Of a stretch of DNA of 64,000 bases, positions 15,771 through 42,631 are shown in pieces. This DNA is from an uncultured Gemmatimonadota bacterium (GTDB lineage: Bacteria > Gemmatimonadota > Gemmatimonadetes > Palauibacterales > Palauibacteraceae): contig CAZRRU010000131.1 in assembly GCA_964602635.1 (NCBI GenBank), forward strand, positions 37,320-101,319, in the 5' to 3' direction. Each line of letters begins with the position of its first letter. Position 1 is the stretch's first letter. The notes under the pieces were generated by a model. That model did no database searches. It was not told the origin of the DNA and saw nothing but the letters and a program-made list of their open reading frames with translations. Both the position numbers and the translations under genes were made by a program.

Positions 15771-16991
15771 TCAGGAACGCACCCGGTAGTCATGCGAGCG
15801 CCGCCGGAAGACATACCATCCAGCAGTCACACGGGCCTTGCGATAGCCCAACAGGTGTAACACCTCGACGGTGAGCCACCGGGCGACGCGCCGGTCCACG
15901 ATGAGTGCGTCTGGGCGGCGGCGGGCCGGATGGATGCCGGGCAGCCAACGAGCGAGCGAGGAGACACGCAGCCGGCGCAATCCGGCGGACAGGCGAAGCC
16001 AGGCAGGATGCACTTCGCGCACGATGAAGAACCCGTCGTCGCCCTGTTCCTGGTACAGCGGCAGGAAGATGCGTCCATCTTCCTGCACGGCCACAGGTCC
16101 CTCACGGTCTTCCGCGACGACTTCTCCGGCCGACACTGCCTGGAAGTTCCTATACGCAGGGCGCATCCGGAACCGATCGTCAGCGGCAACCGGCCTGCGG
16201 AACCGGACCTCGAAGACTCCGGGCAAGCCGAGGACCGCCTCCCGCAGGGCCTCCCGCATGCCACGGGCCTCCGGGACGTCTTCCTGCGCCACGTGGCCAC
16301 CCGCGATGAGGGCCATCCATACGGCGCGCTCGTGGTGGTCCACGGACACGGGGTCGTCGTGCTGGCCCGCCTCGATGCCCAGCGTCACCGGCCCGGATCC
16401 GTTGATCACTTCCAGCAGCGCGCCGTCGATCTGTTCCTCGATTCCGAGAACGAGCGGCAGGCCGATGCGTCCCGCAAACGCCCGGTTCCGGAGCGTATCG
16501 GCCAGGGTGAGAAACGGTGGACCCTCGGCGGAGGCGGTGTGGAGGTCGATCACCCTCGTGTCGCTCCGGGCTCCCTCCAGCTCGGCACTGAGAACGGCGA
16601 TCAGCTCGGCCTGCTCCCCGTCCTCGGCGGGCGCTCCGGGCAAGGTCTCCGCCCGTTCTATGCCCCTCGGGCTCCAGCCGCGATTCAAGTCGCGCTCCAG
16701 GAACCGCCGGCCGGCCTTCAACGCCCTGATGTTTCCCGCGATCCCGACGATGTGGCCGTTGAACGGAGGCCTGCTGTCGTGCAGCGTCTCGAAGACGCGC
16801 CGAAGAGCCAGCACGCCGGCGGGTTCGTTGCCGTGCAGGCCCCCGAGGCAGATGAGGCGGGGACCGGGCGGGGTTCCGAAGCGGCCGATGACACGGCCGC
16901 TCTCGAGCCCGATTCGTCCGGAAGGCTGCAGGTCTGCCGCCCTTGATTCCTCCGGGCCGGGCGTTGCCGGTGAGCTGACGGCTCGACTCAC
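15771..16991 (-). CDS. Succinylglutamate desuccinylase/aspartoacylase (AstE/AspA, M14-like zinc deacylase) family protein
   Basis: GGLHGNEPAG (His/Glu zinc ligands), ERDLNRGW, VIDLHTAS (third ligand). Start set at the GTG at 16991, which overlaps the upstream TGA (GTGA). The rest of the 648-aa ORF-track entry is an Arg/Gly-rich read-on across the upstream gene. Confidence 0.8.
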   Translation of the reverse strand: MSRAVSSPATPGPEESRAADLQPSGRIGLESGRVIGRFGTPPGPRLICLGGLHGNEPAGVLALRRVFETLHDSRPPFNGHIVGIAGNIRALKAGRRFLERDLNRGWSPRGIERAETLPGAPAEDGEQAELIAVLSAELEGARSDTRVIDLHTASAEGPPFLTLADTLRNRAFAGRIGLPLVLGIEEQIDGALLEVINGSGPVTLGIEAGQHDDPVSVDHHERAVWMALIAGGHVAQEDVPEARGMREALREAVLGLPGVFEVRFRRPVAADDRFRMRPAYRNFQAVSAGEVVAEDREGPVAVQEDGRIFLPLYQEQGDDGFFIVREVHPAWLRLSAGLRRLRVSSLARWLPGIHPARRRPDALIVDRRVARWLTVEVLHLLGYRKARVTAGWYVFRRRSHDYRVRS

Positions 16992-18901
16992 TCCCGCAGC
17001 ATCTCCTCGAGAAGCTGCCCGGCGATACGCATGAAGTCGTGTTCGGTAACGATGCCGATGAGCCGGCCGTCCTTGACCACGGGAAGACAGGAGATGCGGT
17101 GCTCCCGCATCACGTCGATTGCGTCGAGGGTAGACGCATCGGGGCCCAGCGTGATGAGGTCGGTGATCATCACCCGGCTGACGGGGATGGGGCCCTCGCT
17201 GCGGCGACCCTCGTCGCTGGCCAGGAAACGCAGCAGGGGGCGGTGGGACACCAAACCGACCAGCCGGTGCTCGTTGTCCTCCACCGGCACGTGGTGAATG
17301 CGATGCCAGTCCATCAGGTTCGCGACCAGGTCGATGGCTTCCTCCTCGTTCACGGTGAGGAGATCCGTGGACATGTACTGCTCGACGCGCAGGTAGCTCG
17401 GCTTCCAGCTGCCCGCTTCGTCCAGTCCCGCGCGTCTCCACTCGTGCACGGGGCGGCTGTGCCGCTGCCGTTCGACCATGGCTGCGACCAGCGCGGCCAT
17501 GCGCTCTTCCAGCGTGCCTTTCTCTCCCATGTCGGCAAGCGAGCCCAGCTGCCACCGCGACCCCGTCCGTCTCGAGTCTACCCGGGCTTCCACCGTGTCG
17601 AGGTATCGCTCTATGTCGGCGGCGTCGATGCCACGTACCTGCAGGCCTTTCCGGGCCAACGGCAGCAGCGTATCGCAGATCAGTTCCTGCGCCGTCACCG
17701 GCTCGCCGTCGAACCACGTGAGATGCGCCTCGAGGCCGTGGCGGGCGGCGGACAGGAAGTTCGTGAACACCGAGTCGAACGCGATCTCCTGCCGGACGTC
17801 GTCCACTTCCTCGGCGAGACCGCTCAACAGGCCAAACCAGAACGCCGCGTTCGCGACCTCGTCCCTAACCGACGGACCGCATGGAAGCACACGGTTCTCG
17901 ATACGCAGGTGGGCGATGTCGTCGGCCACGCCGTAACAGGCCCGGTTCCACCGGTAGACGGTGCTGTTGAACAGCTGCAGTGCCTTCAGACTCGGCACCC
18001 GGCCTTCGTCCATCACTTGGAACGGGTCCTCGTCGATCTCACGCCCCAGGAGCACCCGGAATCGGGACACGTCCGACTTGAAGATCTCGATGACCGACTC
18101 ATCGACCCATTCGCGTCCGAAGCTCACGCGCGCCGGCAAATCGCGGATCTCGGGAATGGGATTTCGCGTATCCACGGACTGCTGAAACACCGCGATCCGG
18201 GTCTCCGACCACAGCCGTCTTCCCAGCATGAGCGGCGAATTCACGGCAGCGGCGAGCACCGGTCCGGTCACCGCCATCGCGATGTTGTACAGGCGGGCAA
18301 ATTCCTCCGGACCCACCTGGAAGTGTACCTGGAAACTGGCGTTAGCCGCCTCCAGCATCACCGAGTCGTGCGTAACTCGGAGTTCGTCGGTACCCTTGAT
18401 GCGAAGGTCGTAGTGTCCGCCCCGGAGCCGAGTGAGAGCGTCGTTCAAGGCGTAGTAGCGATCCGCCGGTACCATGTTCTCGAGACTCAGGTCGGACTTC
18501 CGGAGCGTCGGCAGGATTCCGGTGAGGACCACCTCGGCTCCCAGATCCCGGACCGTCTTGCGGACGGTCTCCAGAAGCTCGTTGAGCCGGTTCTCCATCA
18601 GCCGGAGACAATTACCGCCGAACAGGAGCGGTTCCAGGTTGAACTCGAGATTGAACCGGCCGATCTCGCTGGTGACGCGAGGATCCTCGATCCGCTCGAG
18701 CGCCTCGACGGCAACCGGGGCGGGGCGCCACATATCGTCCACCAGGAAGAGCTCCTGCTCCAGCCCGATCCGCCTCACCCCGGACTCGATCCGGTCCCCG
18801 TGCAAGAGGTGGTCGAGGGCCCGCACATCCCTCAGGAGGGCTTGTGTGAAGACCCTTAGGTCGGAGCTGTCCAGCTCGATACGGATTTCCTTATCGCCCA
18901 A
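16988..18901 (-). CDS. GCS2-type carboxylate-amine ligase (glutamate-cysteine ligase family 2) fused to a C-terminal tandem CBS pair
   Basis: RRIGLEQELFLVD, EIGRFNLEFNLEP, EAANASFQVHFQV (GCS2 signatures). The C-terminal ~130 aa form two CBS repeats (YMSTDLLTVNEEEAIDLVANLMDWHRIHHVPV; VMITDLITLGPDASTLDAIDVMREHRISCLPVV). TTG start 5 nt after GGAGG. Confidence 0.8.
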   Translation of the reverse strand: MGDKEIRIELDSSDLRVFTQALLRDVRALDHLLHGDRIESGVRRIGLEQELFLVDDMWRPAPVAVEALERIEDPRVTSEIGRFNLEFNLEPLLFGGNCLRLMENRLNELLETVRKTVRDLGAEVVLTGILPTLRKSDLSLENMVPADRYYALNDALTRLRGGHYDLRIKGTDELRVTHDSVMLEAANASFQVHFQVGPEEFARLYNIAMAVTGPVLAAAVNSPLMLGRRLWSETRIAVFQQSVDTRNPIPEIRDLPARVSFGREWVDESVIEIFKSDVSRFRVLLGREIDEDPFQVMDEGRVPSLKALQLFNSTVYRWNRACYGVADDIAHLRIENRVLPCGPSVRDEVANAAFWFGLLSGLAEEVDDVRQEIAFDSVFTNFLSAARHGLEAHLTWFDGEPVTAQELICDTLLPLARKGLQVRGIDAADIERYLDTVEARVDSRRTGSRWQLGSLADMGEKGTLEERMAALVAAMVERQRHSRPVHEWRRAGLDEAGSWKPSYLRVEQYMSTDLLTVNEEEAIDLVANLMDWHRIHHVPVEDNEHRLVGLVSHRPLLRFLASDEGRRSEGPIPVSRVMITDLITLGPDASTLDAIDVMREHRISCLPVVKDGRLIGIVTEHDFMRIAGQLLEEMLRE

Positions 18902-33489: not shown

Positions 33490-33939
33490 TCACTCGCCCA
33501 GCATCTCGTCGATGGCCTTCCGCGGCACAGCGCCCGTCTGCCGGCTCACCTCGGAGCCGCCCCGGAACAGGATGAGCGTGGGAATGCCGCGGATCCCGAA
33601 AGACGCCGAGGCCTCGGGGTTCGCGTCCGTGTCGAGTTTGGCCACCAGGATCTCTCCCACCCGGTCCGCGGCCAGCTCGTCGAGCACGGGCGCCATGATC
33701 TTGCACGGGCCGCACCAGTCGGCGTAGAAATCCACCAGAACCGGAACATCCGATTCTCGCACCACGCGATCCAGGTCCTCACCGCCGATTCTGACCGGCC
33801 GATCGAGAAGAAGCGGGCGACCGCAACCGCCGCACTTCGGCCGATCCACGGCCCGGTCCATGTTCACCCGGTTCAGCTTCGAGCAGAACGCGCACCGAAG
33901 CGTGGCCCTGCGCTCCCCGTTTGCGGATATGTCCTTCAT
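33490..33939 (-). CDS. trxC: Thioredoxin 2-type thioredoxin with N-terminal zinc finger
   Basis: CAFCSKLN...CGGCGRPL (zinc finger), then VDFYADWCGPCK (the WCGPC active site). Start set at the ATG at 33939. Confidence 0.9.
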   Translation of the reverse strand: MKDISANGERRATLRCAFCSKLNRVNMDRAVDRPKCGGCGRPLLLDRPVRIGGEDLDRVVRESDVPVLVDFYADWCGPCKIMAPVLDELAADRVGEILVAKLDTDANPEASASFGIRGIPTLILFRGGSEVSRQTGAVPRKAIDEMLGE

Positions 33940-34013
33940 CTGTCGCTTCCTGAAGCGTTGGGGGATCGTTCGGCGAGCGGCGAAAGCCGCGGACGCCAAC
34001 TGACTCTATCGTA

Positions 34014-35216
34014 TTGTGCGCGGCCACCACGGATGTCAACGTTCGGTGTCCCGAAAACGATCGGAAACTGCGCGTGCGCATCGTCCACACAGAATCGTCC
34101 ACGGTCATGGGGGGGCAGGAGCGGCGGGTCCTGGCCGAAAGCATCGGGATGCGCGACCGGGGCCACGACCTGTGGATCGTCACTCCGCCGGACGGTGCCC
34201 TGGCGGGCCGCGCCCGTGACGCTGGACTCGAGGTGGTCCCGCTCTCGTTCCGCCGTTGGAGGTTGCTCGCCAACGCCCGGTCCCTGGCCTCTCTCGTGCG
34301 TCGGCTCGAACCGGACATCGTGAACTCCCACAGCTCGGCAGACAGCTGGACGGCGGCCCTCGGGCTGCGTGCCGGGTCACGCGGCAGTGCGCTCGTTCGA
34401 AGTCGTCACATTTCGGCGCGCGTCGAGCCGGGACCGCTGCACAGATTCCTCTACGGGCAGGCGGACTTCGTGATCACCACCGGAGAGTCCGTCCGTCGGG
34501 ATCTCGCCGACTCCGGCCTGATCCCCCTGGAGCACTCCGCATCGATTCCAACGGGCGTCGACCTGGCCCGTTATCGACCGGTGCCCGAAGGACGGACGGA
34601 GGCGCGCCGCGCTCTCGGGATTTCCACCGGGGGACCCGTTCTGGGCGTCGTCGCCTATCTGAGGGAAGACAAGGGCCACGCGGTCCTGCTGCGGGCCATG
34701 CCGGAGATCCTGCGCCGCTGTCCGGACTGCGTCCTCGTCGTGGTCGGGGACGGCCCGGAGCGCGAACGTCTGGAGAAGCAGGCACGGAGCCTCGGGATCG
34801 AGGGCGCCGTGCGGTTCGCGGGCCTCCGGGAAGACGTCCCGTTCGTGCTCTCCGCGCTCGACGTGTTCTGCCTGCCGTCGGTCCGCAACGAGGGTGTACC
34901 GCAATCCGCGCTGCAGGCCGGCGCGGCCGCGGTGCCCGTCGTCAGCACGGCCGTCGGCGGAATCCCGGAGGCCGTCGTACACGGCAGGACCGGCACCGTG
35001 GTGCCCCCGGGCGACGCGGGCGCCCTGGCGAGAGCGGTTTGCGACCTCATCGATGACCCCGCGGCGCGGAGTCGCTTCGGGCAGGCGGGTCGGGCGCACG
35101 TATCCGGTTCGTTCTCGGTCCATCGGATGCTTGATCTCACCGAGGAAGCGTACGCGGCAGCGCTTCGGTCTGCCGCCTTGAGCGGCGGATCCCGCGGCAT
35201 CCAGCCAGGTCCATGA
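34014..35216 (+). CDS. Glycosyltransferase family 4 (GT-B)
   Basis: RIVHTESSTVMGGQERRVL (N-domain) and PSVRNEGVPQSALQAGAAAVPVVST (C-domain). The true start may be the GTG near 34074. Confidence 0.85.
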   Translation: MCAATTDVNVRCPENDRKLRVRIVHTESSTVMGGQERRVLAESIGMRDRGHDLWIVTPPDGALAGRARDAGLEVVPLSFRRWRLLANARSLASLVRRLEPDIVNSHSSADSWTAALGLRAGSRGSALVRSRHISARVEPGPLHRFLYGQADFVITTGESVRRDLADSGLIPLEHSASIPTGVDLARYRPVPEGRTEARRALGISTGGPVLGVVAYLREDKGHAVLLRAMPEILRRCPDCVLVVVGDGPERERLEKQARSLGIEGAVRFAGLREDVPFVLSALDVFCLPSVRNEGVPQSALQAGAAAVPVVSTAVGGIPEAVVHGRTGTVVPPGDAGALARAVCDLIDDPAARSRFGQAGRAHVSGSFSVHRMLDLTEEAYAAALRSAALSGGSRGIQPGP

Positions 35217-36067
35217 CCGAGCGTCTTCCTGAGGCCCGGTTCACGGGGGAGCTGCCGGCGACGCTCGCACACAGGTTGCTGCACGCGCCCGGATCGCCGC
35301 CGGACCGCTGGGTCTTGTTTCTGCACGGCTTCATGGGCGCCGGCCGGAATTGGGCATCGATCGGCCGCGGGCTGGTGGGCGCGAGACCCGACTGGGGCGT
35401 GGTCCTCGTGGATCTTCGCCTGCACGGGGAAAGCCAGGGCTTTTCCCCACCTCACACCGTGGCCGCCAGCGCAACCGACGTCAATTCATTGGTGCTTCAC
35501 CTCGGCGCCACCGAGGCGGTGATCGTCGGCCACTCGTTCGGGGGCAAGGTGGCGCTGGCTGCCGCGCGGTCGGGCGACACCGTCCTGCGGCAGGTCTGGG
35601 CGATCGACAGCACTCCGTCGGTGGGGAGGACGGAAGCAGGAGCGGCTCGCCTCCTGGCCTTGCTGGCCGGGCTGCCGGAACGGTTTGAAGACCGGTCCGT
35701 GCTGGTTGCGGCGGTGCGGGAGGCGGGCTTCAACGCCCATCTGGCCGAGTGGACGGCCACGAACCTGGCCAGGCGGCCTGATGGGTACGGCTGGAAGTTC
35801 GACCTGGCGTCTCTCGACCTGCTTCTCGAGGACTTCTATCGGGAGGACCTGTGGTCCGTGGTGGACCCGTCCGTGCCGGGGCGAGAGCTGTTTTTCATCC
35901 GGGCGACCCGCGGCTCGATCATGGACGACGCCGCGGCGGCGCGAATCAGGCGTCTGGAGGCGGATGGAGAATGCGTTCGGCTGATCGAGCTGGACGGCGG
36001 TCACTGGCTCAACATGGCGAACCCCGACGGGCTCCTGGAACTGCTGGTCCGGTTCCTGCCTCGCTGA
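35213..36067 (+). CDS. Alpha/beta-fold hydrolase
   Basis: VLFLHGFMGAGRNW, nucleophile elbow GHSFGG, C-terminal GGHWLNMANP (catalytic His). ATGA overlap with the GT4 gene. Confidence 0.8.
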   Translation: MTERLPEARFTGELPATLAHRLLHAPGSPPDRWVLFLHGFMGAGRNWASIGRGLVGARPDWGVVLVDLRLHGESQGFSPPHTVAASATDVNSLVLHLGATEAVIVGHSFGGKVALAAARSGDTVLRQVWAIDSTPSVGRTEAGAARLLALLAGLPERFEDRSVLVAAVREAGFNAHLAEWTATNLARRPDGYGWKFDLASLDLLLEDFYREDLWSVVDPSVPGRELFFIRATRGSIMDDAAAARIRRLEADGECVRLIELDGGHWLNMANPDGLLELLVRFLPR

Positions 36068-37391: not shown

Positions 37392-39179
37392 ATGGACGAG
37401 AAGGAGAAGATGAGCGCACGAAAACGCGAAGCCAGAGCGGCCGCCTTCCAGTCCGACGCGGAGTCGCAGGATGTGACGGCCGGGAGCGATGGGGAGGGGC
37501 AGCCGACATGGTTGGACCGAGTGAGGGATATCGCCGCGCCGGAGCCTGACGAGCCGCTATGGACGCCGGAGCCCGTTGGCCCCTCCGAGCCCATGTGGGA
37601 TGCCACTGACACGGTCGAACCAGCTCCCCCGGAAGCCTCCACGCTCGAAGTCTCGCCGCCCGAGCCGTCGGTTCCCGATCCTGGAGCGATTCCGGAGACT
37701 GCCGAGGCTGCGCTCGAGGAAAACGTCGGGCTGAGCGTGCGCCGCCTGCGCAAGGCCGCCATCGAGATGGCGGGCCGCGACGCCGAGGCAAGTCTCCCGG
37801 ACCCCGGGGCCGAAGGCAGGGCCGAGTCGGAGGAGGAGCTGCGCGATCGCGCCGTTTCGTTGTTCCTCAACTGGCGGGCCAGGGAGCGCTCGCGCCTCAA
37901 CTCGGTGGTCGGGGAGATGGAGGGACGGATCACGAGGATCCTGGCCGGCATTTCGCTGGACAACGATCGTTTCGGACGCGTCACGAGCGAGCTGTTCCGC
38001 CTGCAAAGGCGATGGGACATGAACCGCAGTGTCGTGGAGAACACGCTGGAGGAGGAAACCGAGGAGCAGGATGACCAGCCGGCCACCCGCCAGTTCAAGA
38101 CGCACTGGTATGCGCTCGCCATCGGCTTCCTCGGCATCGTGGAATTCCTCGCCAACGCGCCTGTGTTCGGTGCGCTTCTTCCCCGCGATCCGCTGACCGA
38201 GCAGCAGTTGCGCTACGTCGCGGAGACGAGTGAGGGGTGGCTCGCCGGGGGCCTGCGGGTGGCGTCTCAGTTCATCCTCAGGCCGGACGCCGCCCTTCTG
38301 GCGGCTGGTGTGGTCACGTTCCTGTGCGTCCTCGCGCATTTCTTCGGCCACTCGCTTCGGTCACTGATGATGCACCAGTCCAGCCGCCGCACGGGCGAGA
38401 CGCTGGGTAAGCGCTCGGCGGGCGAGTTCGTGGTGCCGATGATCCTGTCGGGGATCGGCCTGACGCTGGTGATCGGTGTCCTTTTCGAGGCGCGCGTCAC
38501 CCTGGGTGAGGTCGCCGAGGATCGGTTCGCACAGGACAGCGCGAAGATCGAGGAGCTGCGACGCACGGCGAGCTGGCTCCGGGTGGACGGCAACCTCGTT
38601 GCCGCGAACGAGCAGGCAAACCGGGCCGACGACCTGGAAGCGCTCGCCAAGGAGCAGCGGGAGTACGCGGCATCGATGAGTGGGCTGAGCTTCCCGATCC
38701 TGCTGCTCAACACGACGCTCATCCTCGTCGCGATATCGGCTGCCTACTTCCATATGCGCGACAGGCGGCGAGATCGGTTCAACGACACGCCATTCGAGCG
38801 CCAGCGGCGCGAGCTGGTGGACCTCGGCGATTCGATTCAGCAGCGCGTGGCGGATGCCATGGGAGACGCGGTGCTTACCATCCGCGGCCTGACCAGCTTA
38901 CTTTCCGAAACACCTCTGCGGGAGGCGCCCGCGCTGGCCAGCCAGCTCGAGGCGACGGTCGTAGCGTACCGGGCGGAGAACGGGCGGTTGCGAGGTCTGG
39001 ACACCAGGGAGATACAGGCGTTCGCCGAGCCCGTCGAGCTGCAGCTCGAAGTGCAGGAGCGGGACATGCGTGACTTGCTGATGCGCGACCCGGAGAGCTA
39101 CGAGAGCGAGCGCCGTGGCCTGCAGGAGACCTTCGAGAAGACTCGGGCCAAGTTCACGGAAGAGGCTACGGCATGGTGA
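37392..39179 (+). CDS. Orphan 595-aa membrane protein: acidic/Pro-rich N-region, 3 TM helices, charged helical segment, fourth TM, long charged helical tail
   Basis: G/C-rich third positions along the whole frame. TM helices: WYALAIGFLGIVEFLANAPVFGALL, ALLAAGVVTFLCVLAHFFGHSL, FVVPMILSGIGLTLVIGVLFEA, LSFPILLLNTTLILVAISAAYFHM. No catalytic motif recognised. Confidence 0.7.
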   Translation: MDEKEKMSARKREARAAAFQSDAESQDVTAGSDGEGQPTWLDRVRDIAAPEPDEPLWTPEPVGPSEPMWDATDTVEPAPPEASTLEVSPPEPSVPDPGAIPETAEAALEENVGLSVRRLRKAAIEMAGRDAEASLPDPGAEGRAESEEELRDRAVSLFLNWRARERSRLNSVVGEMEGRITRILAGISLDNDRFGRVTSELFRLQRRWDMNRSVVENTLEEETEEQDDQPATRQFKTHWYALAIGFLGIVEFLANAPVFGALLPRDPLTEQQLRYVAETSEGWLAGGLRVASQFILRPDAALLAAGVVTFLCVLAHFFGHSLRSLMMHQSSRRTGETLGKRSAGEFVVPMILSGIGLTLVIGVLFEARVTLGEVAEDRFAQDSAKIEELRRTASWLRVDGNLVAANEQANRADDLEALAKEQREYAASMSGLSFPILLLNTTLILVAISAAYFHMRDRRRDRFNDTPFERQRRELVDLGDSIQQRVADAMGDAVLTIRGLTSLLSETPLREAPALASQLEATVVAYRAENGRLRGLDTREIQAFAEPVELQLEVQERDMRDLLMRDPESYESERRGLQETFEKTRAKFTEEATAW

Positions 39180-39955
39180 TCCGAAAGTCCTGGGTGCTGG
39201 CCTCCCTGCTCGGCGCGATGGCGCTAGCGGGCTGCGGCACACAGGAGGGCGCTGCGTCGGGTGGCGAGGGCGAAGGTGGAGTGGTCAAGCGATCGACGCC
39301 GCAGCTGGTGGTATTCGTCTACGATCGCTCGACCAGTATCTCGCACCATCAGCTCGATCTTGCACGCCAGCTCACGAACGACAGGATCCGCAAGCTGGAT
39401 CACGGTGACCGGATCGCCGCTCACCAGCTGCTTCAGCTCTCTCTCGAAGAGCCGCCGCAGCGTTGGTCCGAGACCGTCCCGCAACGACAGTTCACCGAGC
39501 AGGCCATGATGCGGGACTCGGTGACCCGAGCTCGATTCCTCCGGGACGCCCAGGACTACCTCGTCGCGTTTACCGACACCACGAGTCGAGACAACATCGA
39601 CGGTACGGACATCCTGTCGACGCTGCACGATGTGAGCGCCGACCTCCAGGCCGCACCTGGGCGCGAGGCCACGCTGTACATCTTCTCGGACATGCTTCAG
39701 TCGAACCGAAGCATCGACATGGAGGGACTGCGGAAGATGCCTCCGTCCGGCTGGATCGAACGCGAAAAGGCCAACGAAACGCTTCCCGATCTTTCAGGCC
39801 TGTGCGTATACGTGATCGGGGCCCGGGTGGACACGCGCGAGAGCCAGCGCGTGAAGGATTTCTGGCAGGAGTATTTCGAGGCGACGGGCGCCGCTTTCGA
39901 GTCGCGCAACTACACGCTGCGTCCGGTGGAGCTCCCCGAGCACCCCTGTACCTGA
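39173..39955 (+). CDS. vWA-like (MIDAS-type) lipoprotein, hypothetical
   Basis: Lipobox LLGAMALAG|C. Beta-alpha alternation with VVFVYDRSTSIS (D-x-S-x-S), DGTDILSTL (Thr) and LYIFSDMLQS (Asp), in vWA MIDAS order. The ATG overlaps the upstream stop by 7 nt (ATGGTGA). Confidence 0.55.
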   Translation: MVIRKSWVLASLLGAMALAGCGTQEGAASGGEGEGGVVKRSTPQLVVFVYDRSTSISHHQLDLARQLTNDRIRKLDHGDRIAAHQLLQLSLEEPPQRWSETVPQRQFTEQAMMRDSVTRARFLRDAQDYLVAFTDTTSRDNIDGTDILSTLHDVSADLQAAPGREATLYIFSDMLQSNRSIDMEGLRKMPPSGWIEREKANETLPDLSGLCVYVIGARVDTRESQRVKDFWQEYFEATGAAFESRNYTLRPVELPEHPCT

Positions 39956-39971
39956 GACGTACGCGAGCGCC

Positions 39972-40343
39972 TCAGAACGGCTTGGTCCGGGCGAGCCAGG
40001 CGCCGATCACACCTAGAATCGGCGCCGCGATCCACACCAGGCGGCTCAGGTCGGGCCTCACCGTCGGCACCGCCAGCAAAGCCCCTACGGCCATCCAGAT
40101 CCCCAACTTGGCCCACGTCCATCCTGGCATACCGGCGCCCATCGTTCCGGACGCTCCCAACCACCCGAACCCACCGAGCAGGATGAGGAACAATCCGACA
40201 CCATAGGTGACGGTGGTCAGCCGCCGAGCCCCATTCGAGTCTTTTGTTCCCCCGTTGATGCCGTGCAGCGCCAGCCCGCCAAGCGACATGAAGACCATGA
40301 GGATTCCGGCAACGTGCACGAGCTTGTATGTGTCGGGTGACAT
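39972..40343 (-). CDS. Small four-TM membrane protein, hypothetical
   Basis: Four hydrophobic helices (LVHVAGILMVFMSLGGLAL; TTVTYGVGLFLILLGGFGWL; KLGIWMAVGALLAV; LVWIAAPILGVIGAWL). Confidence 0.6.
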   Translation of the reverse strand: MSPDTYKLVHVAGILMVFMSLGGLALHGINGGTKDSNGARRLTTVTYGVGLFLILLGGFGWLGASGTMGAGMPGWTWAKLGIWMAVGALLAVPTVRPDLSRLVWIAAPILGVIGAWLARTKPF

Positions 40344-40494
40344 CCAGACTGCTCCTCTCTCGGGTTCGGGACGGGTCCGACCGTGGGCGCCCCTGCGGCG
40401 CCGGCCGGTTCCGGGCTACCTTAGACGGATTCGCCGCCCGGGGGAAGAGGATGGCGCGGCGAGCGGTATGCCATTGAACAGGAGATGTCGCCGA

Positions 40495-40956
40495 ATGAGT
40501 GATCCAATCTATCTGGCTCGTTCGACCGTGCGGAAGATCGAGGGTGTCCACCGTGAGGCGGAGATCGCCGCTGGGGTCCGATTCGAGATGGGGGTGCACG
40601 GGGCCATCAAGGAACACTACCGGCTGGAGGGGAAGAACCTGCCCCTTCCCGTGGACTACATCGTGGCCGCGACCGGGGGGTGAATGCTGGGCACACTCAA
40701 CGGCGCACTGGAGGTGCGCGGGATCATCCTGGCGCCCGGGGACATCGTGGCCGAGGTGGAGGGCGTGAACGAGATGGTGGAGGGACTACCCGTACTCACC
40801 CGGATCGTCGTGCGCTACCGGCTCAGAGTCCCGGCTGCTGTCAGAGACAAGGTAGATCGGGCGCTCGAGCGCCACGCGTCGAAGTGTCCGTCGGCCGCCA
40901 GTCTGAGGGGCTCGGTATCGGTGGATTGGGAGGCCGAGGTCGAAGAAAGGACCTGA
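40495..40956 (+). CDS. OsmC/YhfA-like thiol peroxidase family protein with an in-frame TGA (40681-40683) at the first catalytic Cys position: candidate selenoprotein (alternatively a pseudogene)
   Basis: Joined translation: ...LPVDYIVAATGG-U-MLGTLNGALEVRG...RALERHASKCPSAASL. This matches the OsmC family AAGGC and K(Y)CP/S motifs (compare E. coli YhfA, LMAAGGCSAIDV...AEKYCSVALML, from memory). AGGAG lies 10 nt upstream of the ATG at 40495. The two ORF-track pieces (40207-40683 and 40684-40956) are in the same frame. Confidence 0.6.
40703..40719 (+). promoter_or_regulatory. Candidate bacterial SECIS-like hairpin downstream of the in-frame TGA
   Basis: GCGCAC-UGGAG-GUGCGC: a 6-bp GC-rich stem and a 5-nt loop with GG. 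The stem starts 20 nt after the UGA and the loop G lies about 27 nt downstream, within the spacing usual for bSECIS elements. Confidence 0.35.
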
Positions 40957-41030: not shown

Positions 41031-41178
41031 ACGCGCCGCACTTCTATCTCCATGAATTGCCGGTAGTTGCGGGCTGTCGCGCACTCGGGGCCGCGAACCT
41101 GCGAGAATGCGGGCCTTGGCGGGCCAACCGACCAACGGGACGAGTTGTCCCATTTCTCGGGCCCGCAAGGGAGGATCC

Positions 41179-41475
41179 ATGCGAAGGAACCGCCATCTGG
41201 TCAGCCGCGGCCTGATGTATCTGGGCCTGGCGGCTGTAGTGTTCACGGGTCTCGAGCTGGGGATCCGCATGGCGGCCGATGCGGCTGGTGTGTGGGGCAT
41301 CGTGGCCGCATCCGTCCTGTTCCCTGCTACCATCGCCGCGGCGCCTCTATTCGCGCTCGCCGTCGGTCACTGGATTCCCGCACTGATCGTGTACGGAGGT
41401 GCCTTCGCAGCCGGTGCCCTGTACGCCAGAGATGAGCGTGACGGGCCGGCTCGCGGATCCTCCGTTACATCTTGA
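41179..41475 (+). CDS. Small three-TM membrane protein, hypothetical
   Basis: ATG at 41179 after GGGAGG. Helices: GLMYLGLAAVVFTGLELGI, VWGIVAASVLFPATIAAAPLFALAV, IPALIVYGGAFAAGALY. Confidence 0.5.
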   Translation: MRRNRHLVSRGLMYLGLAAVVFTGLELGIRMAADAAGVWGIVAASVLFPATIAAAPLFALAVGHWIPALIVYGGAFAAGALYARDERDGPARGSSVTS

Positions 41476-41989
41476 TGTCGACCAGCTCGAACTCGTAGAC
41501 CAACGTCGCGTTCGGCGGAATAGCCCCGGGCACGCCGCGGGACCCGTAGCCGAGGTTGGGCGGGACTACGAGCCGACGCTTGCCCCCGATCCGCATGCCG
41601 GTGACCCCTTCCTCCCATCCGGCGATCACGTCGCGTCTGGCCCCGAGCTGGAAGCTGCGGGCTTCTCCCGCATCGCTCGTGCTGTCGAACTGCTCTCCGT
41701 TGGGAAGCCAACCCGTGTAGTGCACGACCACCACGTGTCCTGAACGCGCGGAGAGACCCCTCCCCTCGACCAGGTCTTCGATGTACAGGCCGGATGGCGT
41801 CTGGTGCATGGCTGCGAGGTCGATTCCCAGCACTTCGGCGAACTCCGAGGGGACCGTGGACTCCACATGCTCGGTCGCGCCCTCGACCGGCCGCTCCGTC
41901 TTGCCCCGATCGCGTACGTCACAGCCCCATACGAGGGCCAGGGCGAGCAGCGGAGCTCCTCGCCTCAGAAGCGCCCTCAACGGTCGCAT
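41465..41989 (-). CDS. FKBP-type peptidyl-prolyl cis-trans isomerase (secreted/lipoprotein-like)
   Basis: VVVHYTGWLPNGEQFDSTSD, FQLGARRDVIAGWEEGVTGMRIGGKRRLVVPPNLGYG, ATLVYEFELVDI. Signal sequence with LALVWGC. Start set at 41989 to clear the ferritin gene. Confidence 0.9.
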   Translation of the reverse strand: MRPLRALLRRGAPLLALALVWGCDVRDRGKTERPVEGATEHVESTVPSEFAEVLGIDLAAMHQTPSGLYIEDLVEGRGLSARSGHVVVVHYTGWLPNGEQFDSTSDAGEARSFQLGARRDVIAGWEEGVTGMRIGGKRRLVVPPNLGYGSRGVPGAIPPNATLVYEFELVDIKM

Positions 41990-42011
41990 TCCGAACCGGC
42001 TGGCGAGCCTG

Positions 42012-42515
42012 CTACTCATCGGCCGCCGGGCTCCGAGCGCCGAGGTCGCGGTCCAGCATGAACAGCGCCGCGCCATCGGCTCCGAACATCTTCATGCGCT
42101 GGATGATCTCGTCGATGCTCGCCTCCTCCTCGACCTGCTCGGTGATGAACCACTGCAGCATGACCTGGGCGGGGCGGTCCTGCTCCTCGTGCGCGAGGTC
42201 GAACAACTCGTTGATGCGCGACGTGACGAAGCGCTCGTGCTCCAGCGACTGCTCCATGATCTCCAGCGGCGACCCGAACTCGAAGGGCGGCTTGTCGATC
42301 CCATGTAGCTCGACGCGTCCGCCCCGCTCGATGAGGAAGTCGTAGAATCGCATGCCGTGCTCGACCTCTTCCTGGGCCTGCATCCGCAACCAGTTGGCGA
42401 AACCAGTGAGGTTCCTGTCGGAGCAGTCAGCCGACATCGCGAGGTACATGTAGGCGGAGTACAGCTCGAACTTGATCTGCTCGTTGATGGCATCCTGGAG
42501 CTTCTGGCTAATCAT
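42012..42515 (-). CDS. Ferritin (non-haem, Ftn-type)
   Basis: MISQKLQDAINEQIKFELYSAYMYLAMS, QAQEEVEHGMRFYDFL, LEHERFVT (ferroxidase-centre ligands). Confidence 0.92.
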   Translation of the reverse strand: MISQKLQDAINEQIKFELYSAYMYLAMSADCSDRNLTGFANWLRMQAQEEVEHGMRFYDFLIERGGRVELHGIDKPPFEFGSPLEIMEQSLEHERFVTSRINELFDLAHEEQDRPAQVMLQWFITEQVEEEASIDEIIQRMKMFGADGAALFMLDRDLGARSPAADE

Positions 42516-42631
42516 CTCTCGTACCGTGATTCGCTTGGGTGAACTGAACGATGTACGGCGCCGTTGCCGCACGCTCCACAACCTGTCCGCTGTTCGGCGG
42601 GCCGGCAACCGGGGGGACGCCTAGCGCGCGG

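Follow-up and report, generated by a model that had tools for sequence, protein, structure and literature searches.

Selenocysteine (Sec) in proteins of the OsmC superfamily has been known since 2005, when an 'OsmC-like protein', represented by three sequences of COG1765, was described as one of 15 selenoprotein families newly found in Sargasso Sea sequences (PMC1088965), and OsmC-like selenoproteins are still present in the catalogues of 2022 and 2026 (PMC9312934, PMC13188914). The motif published for them is UxxT (PMC1088965 Table 3, PMC13188914). Here we analyse a 64-kb stretch of an uncultured Gemmatimonadota genome (contig CAZRRU010000131.1; hereafter the window), in which a gene at 40495-40956 on the forward strand is interrupted by one in-frame TGA. 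According to our analysis, which is based on sequence comparison, this is a single 153-residue OsmC-superfamily selenoprotein gene whose internal TGA encodes Sec, with a probability of about 0.9. The initial annotation of this DNA had pointed to OsmC-like selenoproteins in metagenomic surveys, and these have indeed been reported (PMC1088965).

The described family (COG1765/YhfA; NF041052, 'OsmC-related (seleno)protein') and the gene studied here have much in common, namely the PF02566 domain, a predicted Sec in place of the first redox cysteine (Cys), a bacterial Sec insertion sequence (SECIS) within the coding region just downstream of the Sec codon, the existence of Cys homologues, and a discovery made from sequence only in uncultured bacteria. 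An OsmC-fold protein with Sec as its peroxidatic residue is thus of a kind that is known already. The two are nevertheless different in several respects. The 153-residue protein reaches only 20.2 bits (E = 4.4e-4) against NF041052, below its cutoff of 95 bits and similar to the score against classical OsmC, TIGR03562 (16.3 bits). Instead of UxxT, it has U63-M-L-G-T67, that is UxxxT, and at least 97% of the family members keep T67. The published family comes from surface-ocean bacteria, whereas the clade considered here belongs mainly to Gemmatimonadota and Acidobacteriota of soil, sediment and sponges. In GenBank its records are labelled as a 90-residue 'OsmC family protein' or 'hypothetical protein' and not as a selenoprotein (for instance MBT8462243.1, MCL7972576.1 and MGW8282101.1). 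Judged by the NF041052 score and the motif, the clade of Gemmatimonadota and Acidobacteriota looks like a separate member of this kind, as yet unannotated.

Read from the ATG at 40495 to the terminal TGA at 40954-40956, the gene is one frame of 154 codons, and its sole internal stop is the TGA at 40681-40683, directly followed by an ATG at 40684. In the list of open reading frames (ORFs) it appears as the pieces 40207..40683 and 40684..40956, which share the frame, as the initial annotation had stated; the length of 153 residues that it gave for the joined product is also right, being the sum of 62 + 1 + 90 (...IVAATGG-[TGA]-MLGTLNG...ERHASKCPSAASL...). Homologues begin at the Met equivalent to ATG 40495 (MSDP.Y..R). 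That gene callers would split the gene had been anticipated, and they do so, calling 62 and 90 residues, while GenBank holds the 90-residue 'OsmC family protein' records. The features of the locus are the following:

40480..40484, forward strand: Shine-Dalgarno-like AGGAG, read from the sequence, 10 nucleotides (nt) 5' of the ATG at 40495.
40495..40956, forward strand: full coding sequence of the predicted OsmC-like selenoprotein, of 153 residues and about 16.5 kDa, plus the TGA stop at 40954-40956, supported by the single frame, the Pfam OsmC match and full-length Cys homologues.
40681..40683, forward strand: in-frame TGA at the site of the peroxidatic Cys, predicted to encode selenocysteine U63 (163 TGA loci; aligned with the Cys of OsmC structures).
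40703..40719, forward strand: putative bacterial SECIS core hairpin, with 5' arm GCGCAC at 40703-40708, loop UGGAG at 40709-40713 and 3' arm GUGCGC at 40714-40719.
40885..40887, forward strand: TGT encoding Cys131 of the KCP motif, predicted to be the resolving cysteine, invariant and aligned with the Cys of GCPVS in OsmC structures.

When the TGA was translated as Cys, the joined protein matched Pfam PF02566 (OsmC) at 46.5 bits against a cutoff of 27.5 bits (E = 5e-12); the aligned region, residues 49-146 on profile positions 5-100 of 100, crosses the TGA. The alignment of the joined translation to this family, suggested earlier as a check, therefore runs across the stop. A sequence search of the PDB returned OsmC of Thermus thermophilus (1ukk, E = 1.5e-4) and of E. 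coli (1nye, 1qwi), and in all three alignments the TGA column falls on the peroxidatic Cys of AAHA(A/G)CF, with Cys131 of K-C-P on the resolving Cys of G-C-P-V-S. Both proposals made earlier about the active site, a TGA at the first conserved Cys of the OsmC family and a second conserved Cys (KCP) that is kept, agree with these alignments. Among 152 unique joined family sequences C131 and D54 are invariant (152/152 each) and R20 is present in 151/152; conservation of at least 97% was found for R20, G33-V34-H35-G36, P50-L51-P52-V53-D54 and T67, and also for R75, Y108, R117, R122, H127, C131-P132 and W145. For the fold we turned to a Cys homologue of 56% identity, P0007, whose AlphaFold2 model has a pLDDT of 80.6, rising above 90 around the active-site helix. 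In this model a long active-site helix spans H53-75, with the position of Sec63 at its N-terminus. Foldseek matched the model to OsmC, Ohr and YhfA structures only, the top PDB matches having a probability of 1.0; the TM-scores are only about 0.5, as expected for the monomer model of a domain-swapped dimer.

Related DNA was taken from three sources: a scan of species-representative genomes (80 loci, mostly of Gemmatimonadota including complete Candidatus Palauibacter chromosomes, with several Acidobacteriota and one Eisenbacteria), a metagenome scan seeded with Cys forms (80 loci), and individual contigs. In total 1.56 Mb was fetched, about 20 kb per related genome. The gene is carried by, among others, the complete Candidatus Palauibacter genomes NZ_OZ253465.1, NZ_OZ244149.1, NZ_OZ250143.1 and NZ_OZ244907.1 and by Acidobacteriota CBDFKO010000002.1. 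At the protein level, the search gave about 100 close relatives, all of roughly 90 residues and starting with MLGTLNG, that is, cut at the same point, together with a few full-length relatives of 152-161 residues. Cys occupies the TGA column in 8 of the 11 full-length relatives that cover it, and full-length Cys homologues of 152-157 residues share 51-60% identity with the 153-residue product. Over all loci, the DNA of this column reads TGA in 163, TGC or TGT in 8 (L087, L088, L089, L127, L164, L169, L170 and L171) and GGA in one, so the Cys codons that the initial annotation expected in homologues were indeed found. All 77 of the species-level genome loci matched by motif search carry TGA, with the N-terminal half conserved in frame, and the metagenome scan returned TGA in 77 of 80 loci despite its seeding with Cys forms. 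The frame upstream is open for at least 55 codons in 155/158 loci, and entropies at the three codon positions are 0.76/0.67/1.28 upstream of the TGA compared with 0.91/0.69/1.37 downstream, the pattern of a coding sequence in the upstream half as well. The terminal stop of the gene is itself TGA in 106/155 loci, 40495-40956 included, which indicates that TGA is not reassigned genome-wide and that the recoding is local.

Homologues with 'W' and 'G' in this column were considered as evidence against the Cys/Sec pairing and were rejected as such. For one of them (P0009; L085:283-768, JGI Ga0643532_0110110) the public call gives Trp while the DNA has TGA, the short contig having apparently been called under genetic code 4; a further protein, P0088, also has W at the Sec column and was seen in protein only. 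The other (P0002; L086:366-833, Logan contig SRR34348099_400039) has a true GGA, encoding Gly, with the SECIS intact as a perfect hairpin GCGUGC-UGGAG-GCACGC; either Sec gave way to Gly very recently, which would leave the enzyme inactive, or the 906-nt contig contains a single-base error.

The second line of evidence comes from the RNA. A 6-bp GC hairpin with a UGGAG loop had been reported at 40703-40719, and it is present there (GCGCAC-UGGAG-GUGCGC), its stem beginning after a spacer of 19 nt from the TGA. In an ungapped alignment of the 77 genome sequences (74 of them distinct) the helix corresponds to columns 23-28 and 34-39 (40703-40708 and 40714-40719), where 100% of the cells are paired, against at most 69% in slid controls. 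Its covariation score was reached by none of 500 shuffles, and RNAalifold independently predicted the same helix with an additional U29:R33 closing pair. When all loci were pooled into 144 unique Sec-form sequences, all six pairs were formed in 143 of them, and compensatory double changes were seen at three pairs (G-C to C-G in 6 sequences, C-G to U-A in 8 and A-U to G-C in 31). The encoded peptide changes in coordination with the stem, as Ala-Leu-Glu-Val, Ala-Leu-Glu-Ala and Val-Leu-Glu-Ala are all found, a Gly to Ala change in the stem region is coupled to a CGC to CGG change, and stem pairing enforces an otherwise rare GCA codon. Third-position entropy is 0-0.3 at columns 24, 30 and 36, which lie in the stem and loop, versus 1.1-1.9 elsewhere. 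The Cys forms, whose peptide is nearly identical, serve as a natural control: all six pairs are retained in only 2 of the 8, and the loop G30, present in 144/144 Sec forms, occurs in 2/8 Cys forms, where CTC stands for CTG (Fisher p = 1.8e-9).

For bacterial SECIS elements (bSECIS) the published criteria are an apical loop of 3-9 nt of the form N1-G-[G/U]-N-N2 with N1:N2 pairing and a G required within the first two loop positions, an upper stem of 4-16 bp, a distance of 16-37 nt from UGA to loop, and a minimum free energy (MFE) of -7.5 kcal/mol or lower (PMC13188914). The hairpin agrees with all four, having a 5-nt loop U-G-G-A-(G/A), a stem of 6-7 bp, a UGA-to-loop distance of 25 nt and an energy of -12.4 kcal/mol. 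The compatibility with a bacterial SECIS that was suggested from the spacing can accordingly be put in stronger terms, as the element is conserved, covaries and fits the published bSECIS model. A search of both strands of the 1.56 Mb for a TGA with a two-sided coding signal and a bSECIS hairpin yielded 138 sites, 129 of which are the TGA of this gene, so that chance does not account for the arrangement. In two loci (L165:~806 and L166:~2645) tandem 9-nt units (CTCGAGGTG...) encoding (EVL)n stand directly 3' of a TGA; these repeats were rejected as a false SECIS candidate.

Several observations weigh against the selenoprotein reading. None of selA, selB, selD or tRNA-Sec was found in the window or in the fetched DNA: ARAGORN detected no tRNA-Sec in the window or in the loci of the genome scan (L001-L080), a regular-expression search of all six frames of the 1.56 Mb for signature motifs of SelA, SelD and SelB returned IF-2 only, and a Pfam scan of 40 window ORFs gave no sel genes. 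Given the small share of each genome that was covered, this absence says little. A 96-nt ARAGORN 'tRNA-Arg (tct)' at L018:18860-18955 on the reverse strand, about 8.6 kb from the OsmC-like gene, was a tRNA-Sec candidate by its length, and was rejected as a probable false positive after Rfam, at E <= 0.01, recognised neither a tRNA nor a tRNA-Sec at this place. By the bSECIS criteria no other selenoprotein gene was present in the scanned neighbourhoods of all loci, and the window itself holds no other convincing gene with an in-frame TGA. Rfam gave chance hits only and neither a SECIS nor any other family of relevance, both for the window at gathering threshold and for 40600-40800 at E <= 10. 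Folded in isolation, the 70 nt of 40681-40750 give an MFE structure that misses the hairpin and is no more stable than those of shuffled sequences (z = -0.3), so that the single sequence alone is not convincing and the support lies in the comparative data. In addition, the hairpin is partly dictated by the conserved peptide G-A-L-E-V-R in a GC-rich genome, and two of the eight Cys forms still form it. The position of the Glu of Ohr and OsmC (Cys minus 10) is taken by Val53 in the PDB alignment, and the peroxidase activity, its reductant and the incorporation of selenium are what we infer.

Three other explanations have to be considered. The TGA could be a Cys codon (TGC/TGT) that was mutated in a pseudogene or misread in sequencing or assembly, TGC and TGA being one base apart, and the GGA of the 906-nt contig shows that single-base variants or errors do occur at this codon. 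However, the identical TGA stands in 163 independently assembled loci of different species and samples, with protein identities of 51-94%, which excludes an assembly error, and both halves are under purifying selection with no further stops or frameshifts; we regard the chance of such an origin as practically negligible. It is extremely unlikely, too, that the locus consists of two separate small genes of 62 and 90 residues, translationally coupled via the UGA-AUG junction, although this is how gene callers and GenBank annotate it now. In 150 of 158 loci the TGA is followed by ATG, but the encoded Met is a conserved residue of the family, found in the Cys forms too (C-M-L-G-T), and in the other 8 loci the codon is CTG or CTA, which leaves the downstream half without a good start codon there. 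The 90-residue half alone just passes the Pfam OsmC threshold (28.9 bits), while the N-terminal 62 residues alone match no Pfam family; moreover, the split would break the OsmC fold halfway along the active-site helix, with a loss of the catalytic residue, and the junction always lies exactly on the Cys column. Taken together, the comparative sequence data exclude assembly error, a pseudogene and two independent genes.

The UGA might also be read through without Sec, a near-cognate tRNA inserting Trp, Cys or Arg, perhaps with stimulation by the hairpin, to give a full-length and selenium-free protein. It would be in line with the Sec machinery not being seen in the inspected parts of these genomes, and downstream structures are generally known to stimulate read-through in other systems. 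Against this, the hairpin fits the SelB-type consensus in detail (loop N1-G-G-N-N2 with N1:N2 pairing, 25-nt spacing), and recoding affects precisely the redox-active Cys, at a site where TGA alternates with no codons but those of Cys, the classical signature of Sec/Cys exchange. Low-efficiency insertion of Trp or Arg at a catalytic residue would produce a dead enzyme, which would not persist in 163 loci. We consider read-through of this kind to be very unlikely.

For the selenoprotein reading, which we prefer, the following mechanism can be proposed, its Sec-insertion steps being drawn from the established knowledge of this process in bacteria and its peroxidase steps modelled on OsmC and Ohr. 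The mRNA hairpin 19 nt 3' of UGA-63 would recruit the complex of SelB, GTP and Sec-tRNA(Sec) to the ribosome, and UGA-63 would be decoded as Sec, whereas the terminal UGA, which has no hairpin, would end translation. By analogy, the product would be a thiol/selenol peroxidase with Sec as the peroxidatic residue. Sec63 would attack a hydroperoxide (ROOH) and become a selenenic acid, which would then form a selenenylsulfide with the invariant Cys131. A thiol (dithiol) reductant would reduce the selenenylsulfide back; it could be a lipoyl protein, as in the case of Ohr, or thioredoxin. The activating Arg/acid pair may be formed by R20 and D54, and D54 is no more than a candidate substitute for the Glu.

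The characterized relatives allow this proposal to be placed among known systems. OsmC (E. coli 1nye/1qwi; T. thermophilus 1ukk) and Ohr (6ebg, 1n2f) have the same fold with a Foldseek probability of 1.0; U63 corresponds to Cys59 of OsmC and C131 to its Cys125, with R20 in the N-terminal strand region. Unlike the protein predicted here, they use Cys and not Sec as the peroxidatic residue, and the identity is only 12-24%. Where they have the acid motif PEEL/PEQL ahead of the active-site helix, an invariant PLPVD is found here, and the family has an invariant GVHG motif of its own at residues 33-36, in a low-confidence region of the model. The reductant of Ohr is dihydrolipoamide, as in PDB 6ebg, one of the fold matches. 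The best structural match is E. coli YhfA (1ml8), of an OsmC subfamily of unknown function (E = 3.7e-7, 24% identity), yet YhfA is absent from the PDB sequence matches at E <= 1, where OsmC proteins appeared. Ahead of its active-site helix YhfA presumably carries G-G-C, comparable to the G-G-U found here, and we know of no demonstrated peroxidase activity for it. The bacterial selenoprotein peroxiredoxins and glutathione peroxidases are similar in having Sec at the peroxide-attacking position and in being resolved by a thiol (PMC1088965 Table 3), but they are of the unrelated thioredoxin fold.

The window is otherwise an ordinary housekeeping chromosome with aroQ, efp, accC, ftsK, lolA, sdhCAB and others. 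The ferritin and thiol-type genes that had been mentioned as lying close by can be located in it by the Pfam map:

42012-42608, reverse strand: ferritin-like protein.
41465-42076, reverse strand: FKBP.
33490-33999, reverse strand: thioredoxin-domain protein, about 7 kb upstream.

Downstream of the gene, FKBP, ferritin and an aldehyde dehydrogenase are syntenic in close relatives only (15-22 of 80 loci), and a conserved operon partner was rejected on this ground; with the synteny so confined, neither an operon nor a function can be deduced from the neighbours. The thioredoxin-domain protein is a possible reductant partner. Its ORF carries an N-terminal extension of about 70 residues, giving 169 residues here compared with the 123 called in close relatives. 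A homologue of the alpha/beta-hydrolase at 35213-36067 (forward strand) is found less than 10 kb from the OsmC-like gene in 37 of the 80 genome loci, far above other neighbours, and these homologues may be paralogues. At 16988-18901 on the reverse strand there is a 637-residue protein with a glutamate-cysteine ligase family 2 (GCS2) domain and C-terminal CBS domains, an unusual architecture for thiol metabolism. The flanking ORFs at 39173-39955 (forward), 39972-40343 (reverse), 41107-41475 (forward) and 37392-39179 (forward) have no Pfam family; those of 595, 260 and 123 residues are kept beside the gene in 16-21 of 80 loci and the one of 122 residues in only 8.

As for earlier records of the clade, an exact look-up of the 90-residue product of 40684..40956 found no entry, the published representatives MBR72571.1 and MCS5647933.1 are not among the members of the 10 clusters sampled, and a literature search on selenoproteins or the Sec trait in Gemmatimonadota gave nothing specific. 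Homology-based resources such as BSepDB may already contain the clade. In hundreds of public records this gene is broken up into an unnamed 62-residue ORF and a 90-residue 'OsmC family protein' that has no catalytic residue. One profile hidden Markov model combined with the SECIS pattern would correct them and would flag a capacity for Sec decoding in metagenome-assembled genomes of Gemmatimonadota and Acidobacteriota. Such a correction would also stop the assignment of genetic code 4 to short contigs, shown here for P0009 and probable for P0088. Our understanding of how selenoproteins work is not changed, and the finding is mechanistically unsurprising, a solid correction of annotation. The locus is, nonetheless, a clear natural example of an RNA element that shapes its own protein, the residues encoded by the hairpin switching together while the SECIS stays paired.

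It would be a further step to suggest that these genes make up a second independent OsmC-superfamily selenoprotein clade of Gemmatimonadota and some Acidobacteriota, apart from NF041052 and the UxxT family and with the Sec form as the normal state (about 95% of sampled loci, at least 77 species-level genomes), and we put this at even odds. An OsmC-type peroxidase that would be Sec-dependent in nearly all sampled members adds to the evidence for selenium use outside anaerobes and gives a hint of widespread Sec use in Gemmatimonadota. The phyla carrying the gene are common in soil, sediment and sponges; Gemmatimonadota and Acidobacteriota live largely as aerobes, and the selenoproteome literature that was searched does not deal with them. 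If the existence of a second clade is true, it has been systematically omitted from public annotation, and Sec decoding together with selenium-dependent peroxide defence would be widespread in these phyla, contrary to the view that aerobes rarely retain selenoproteins.

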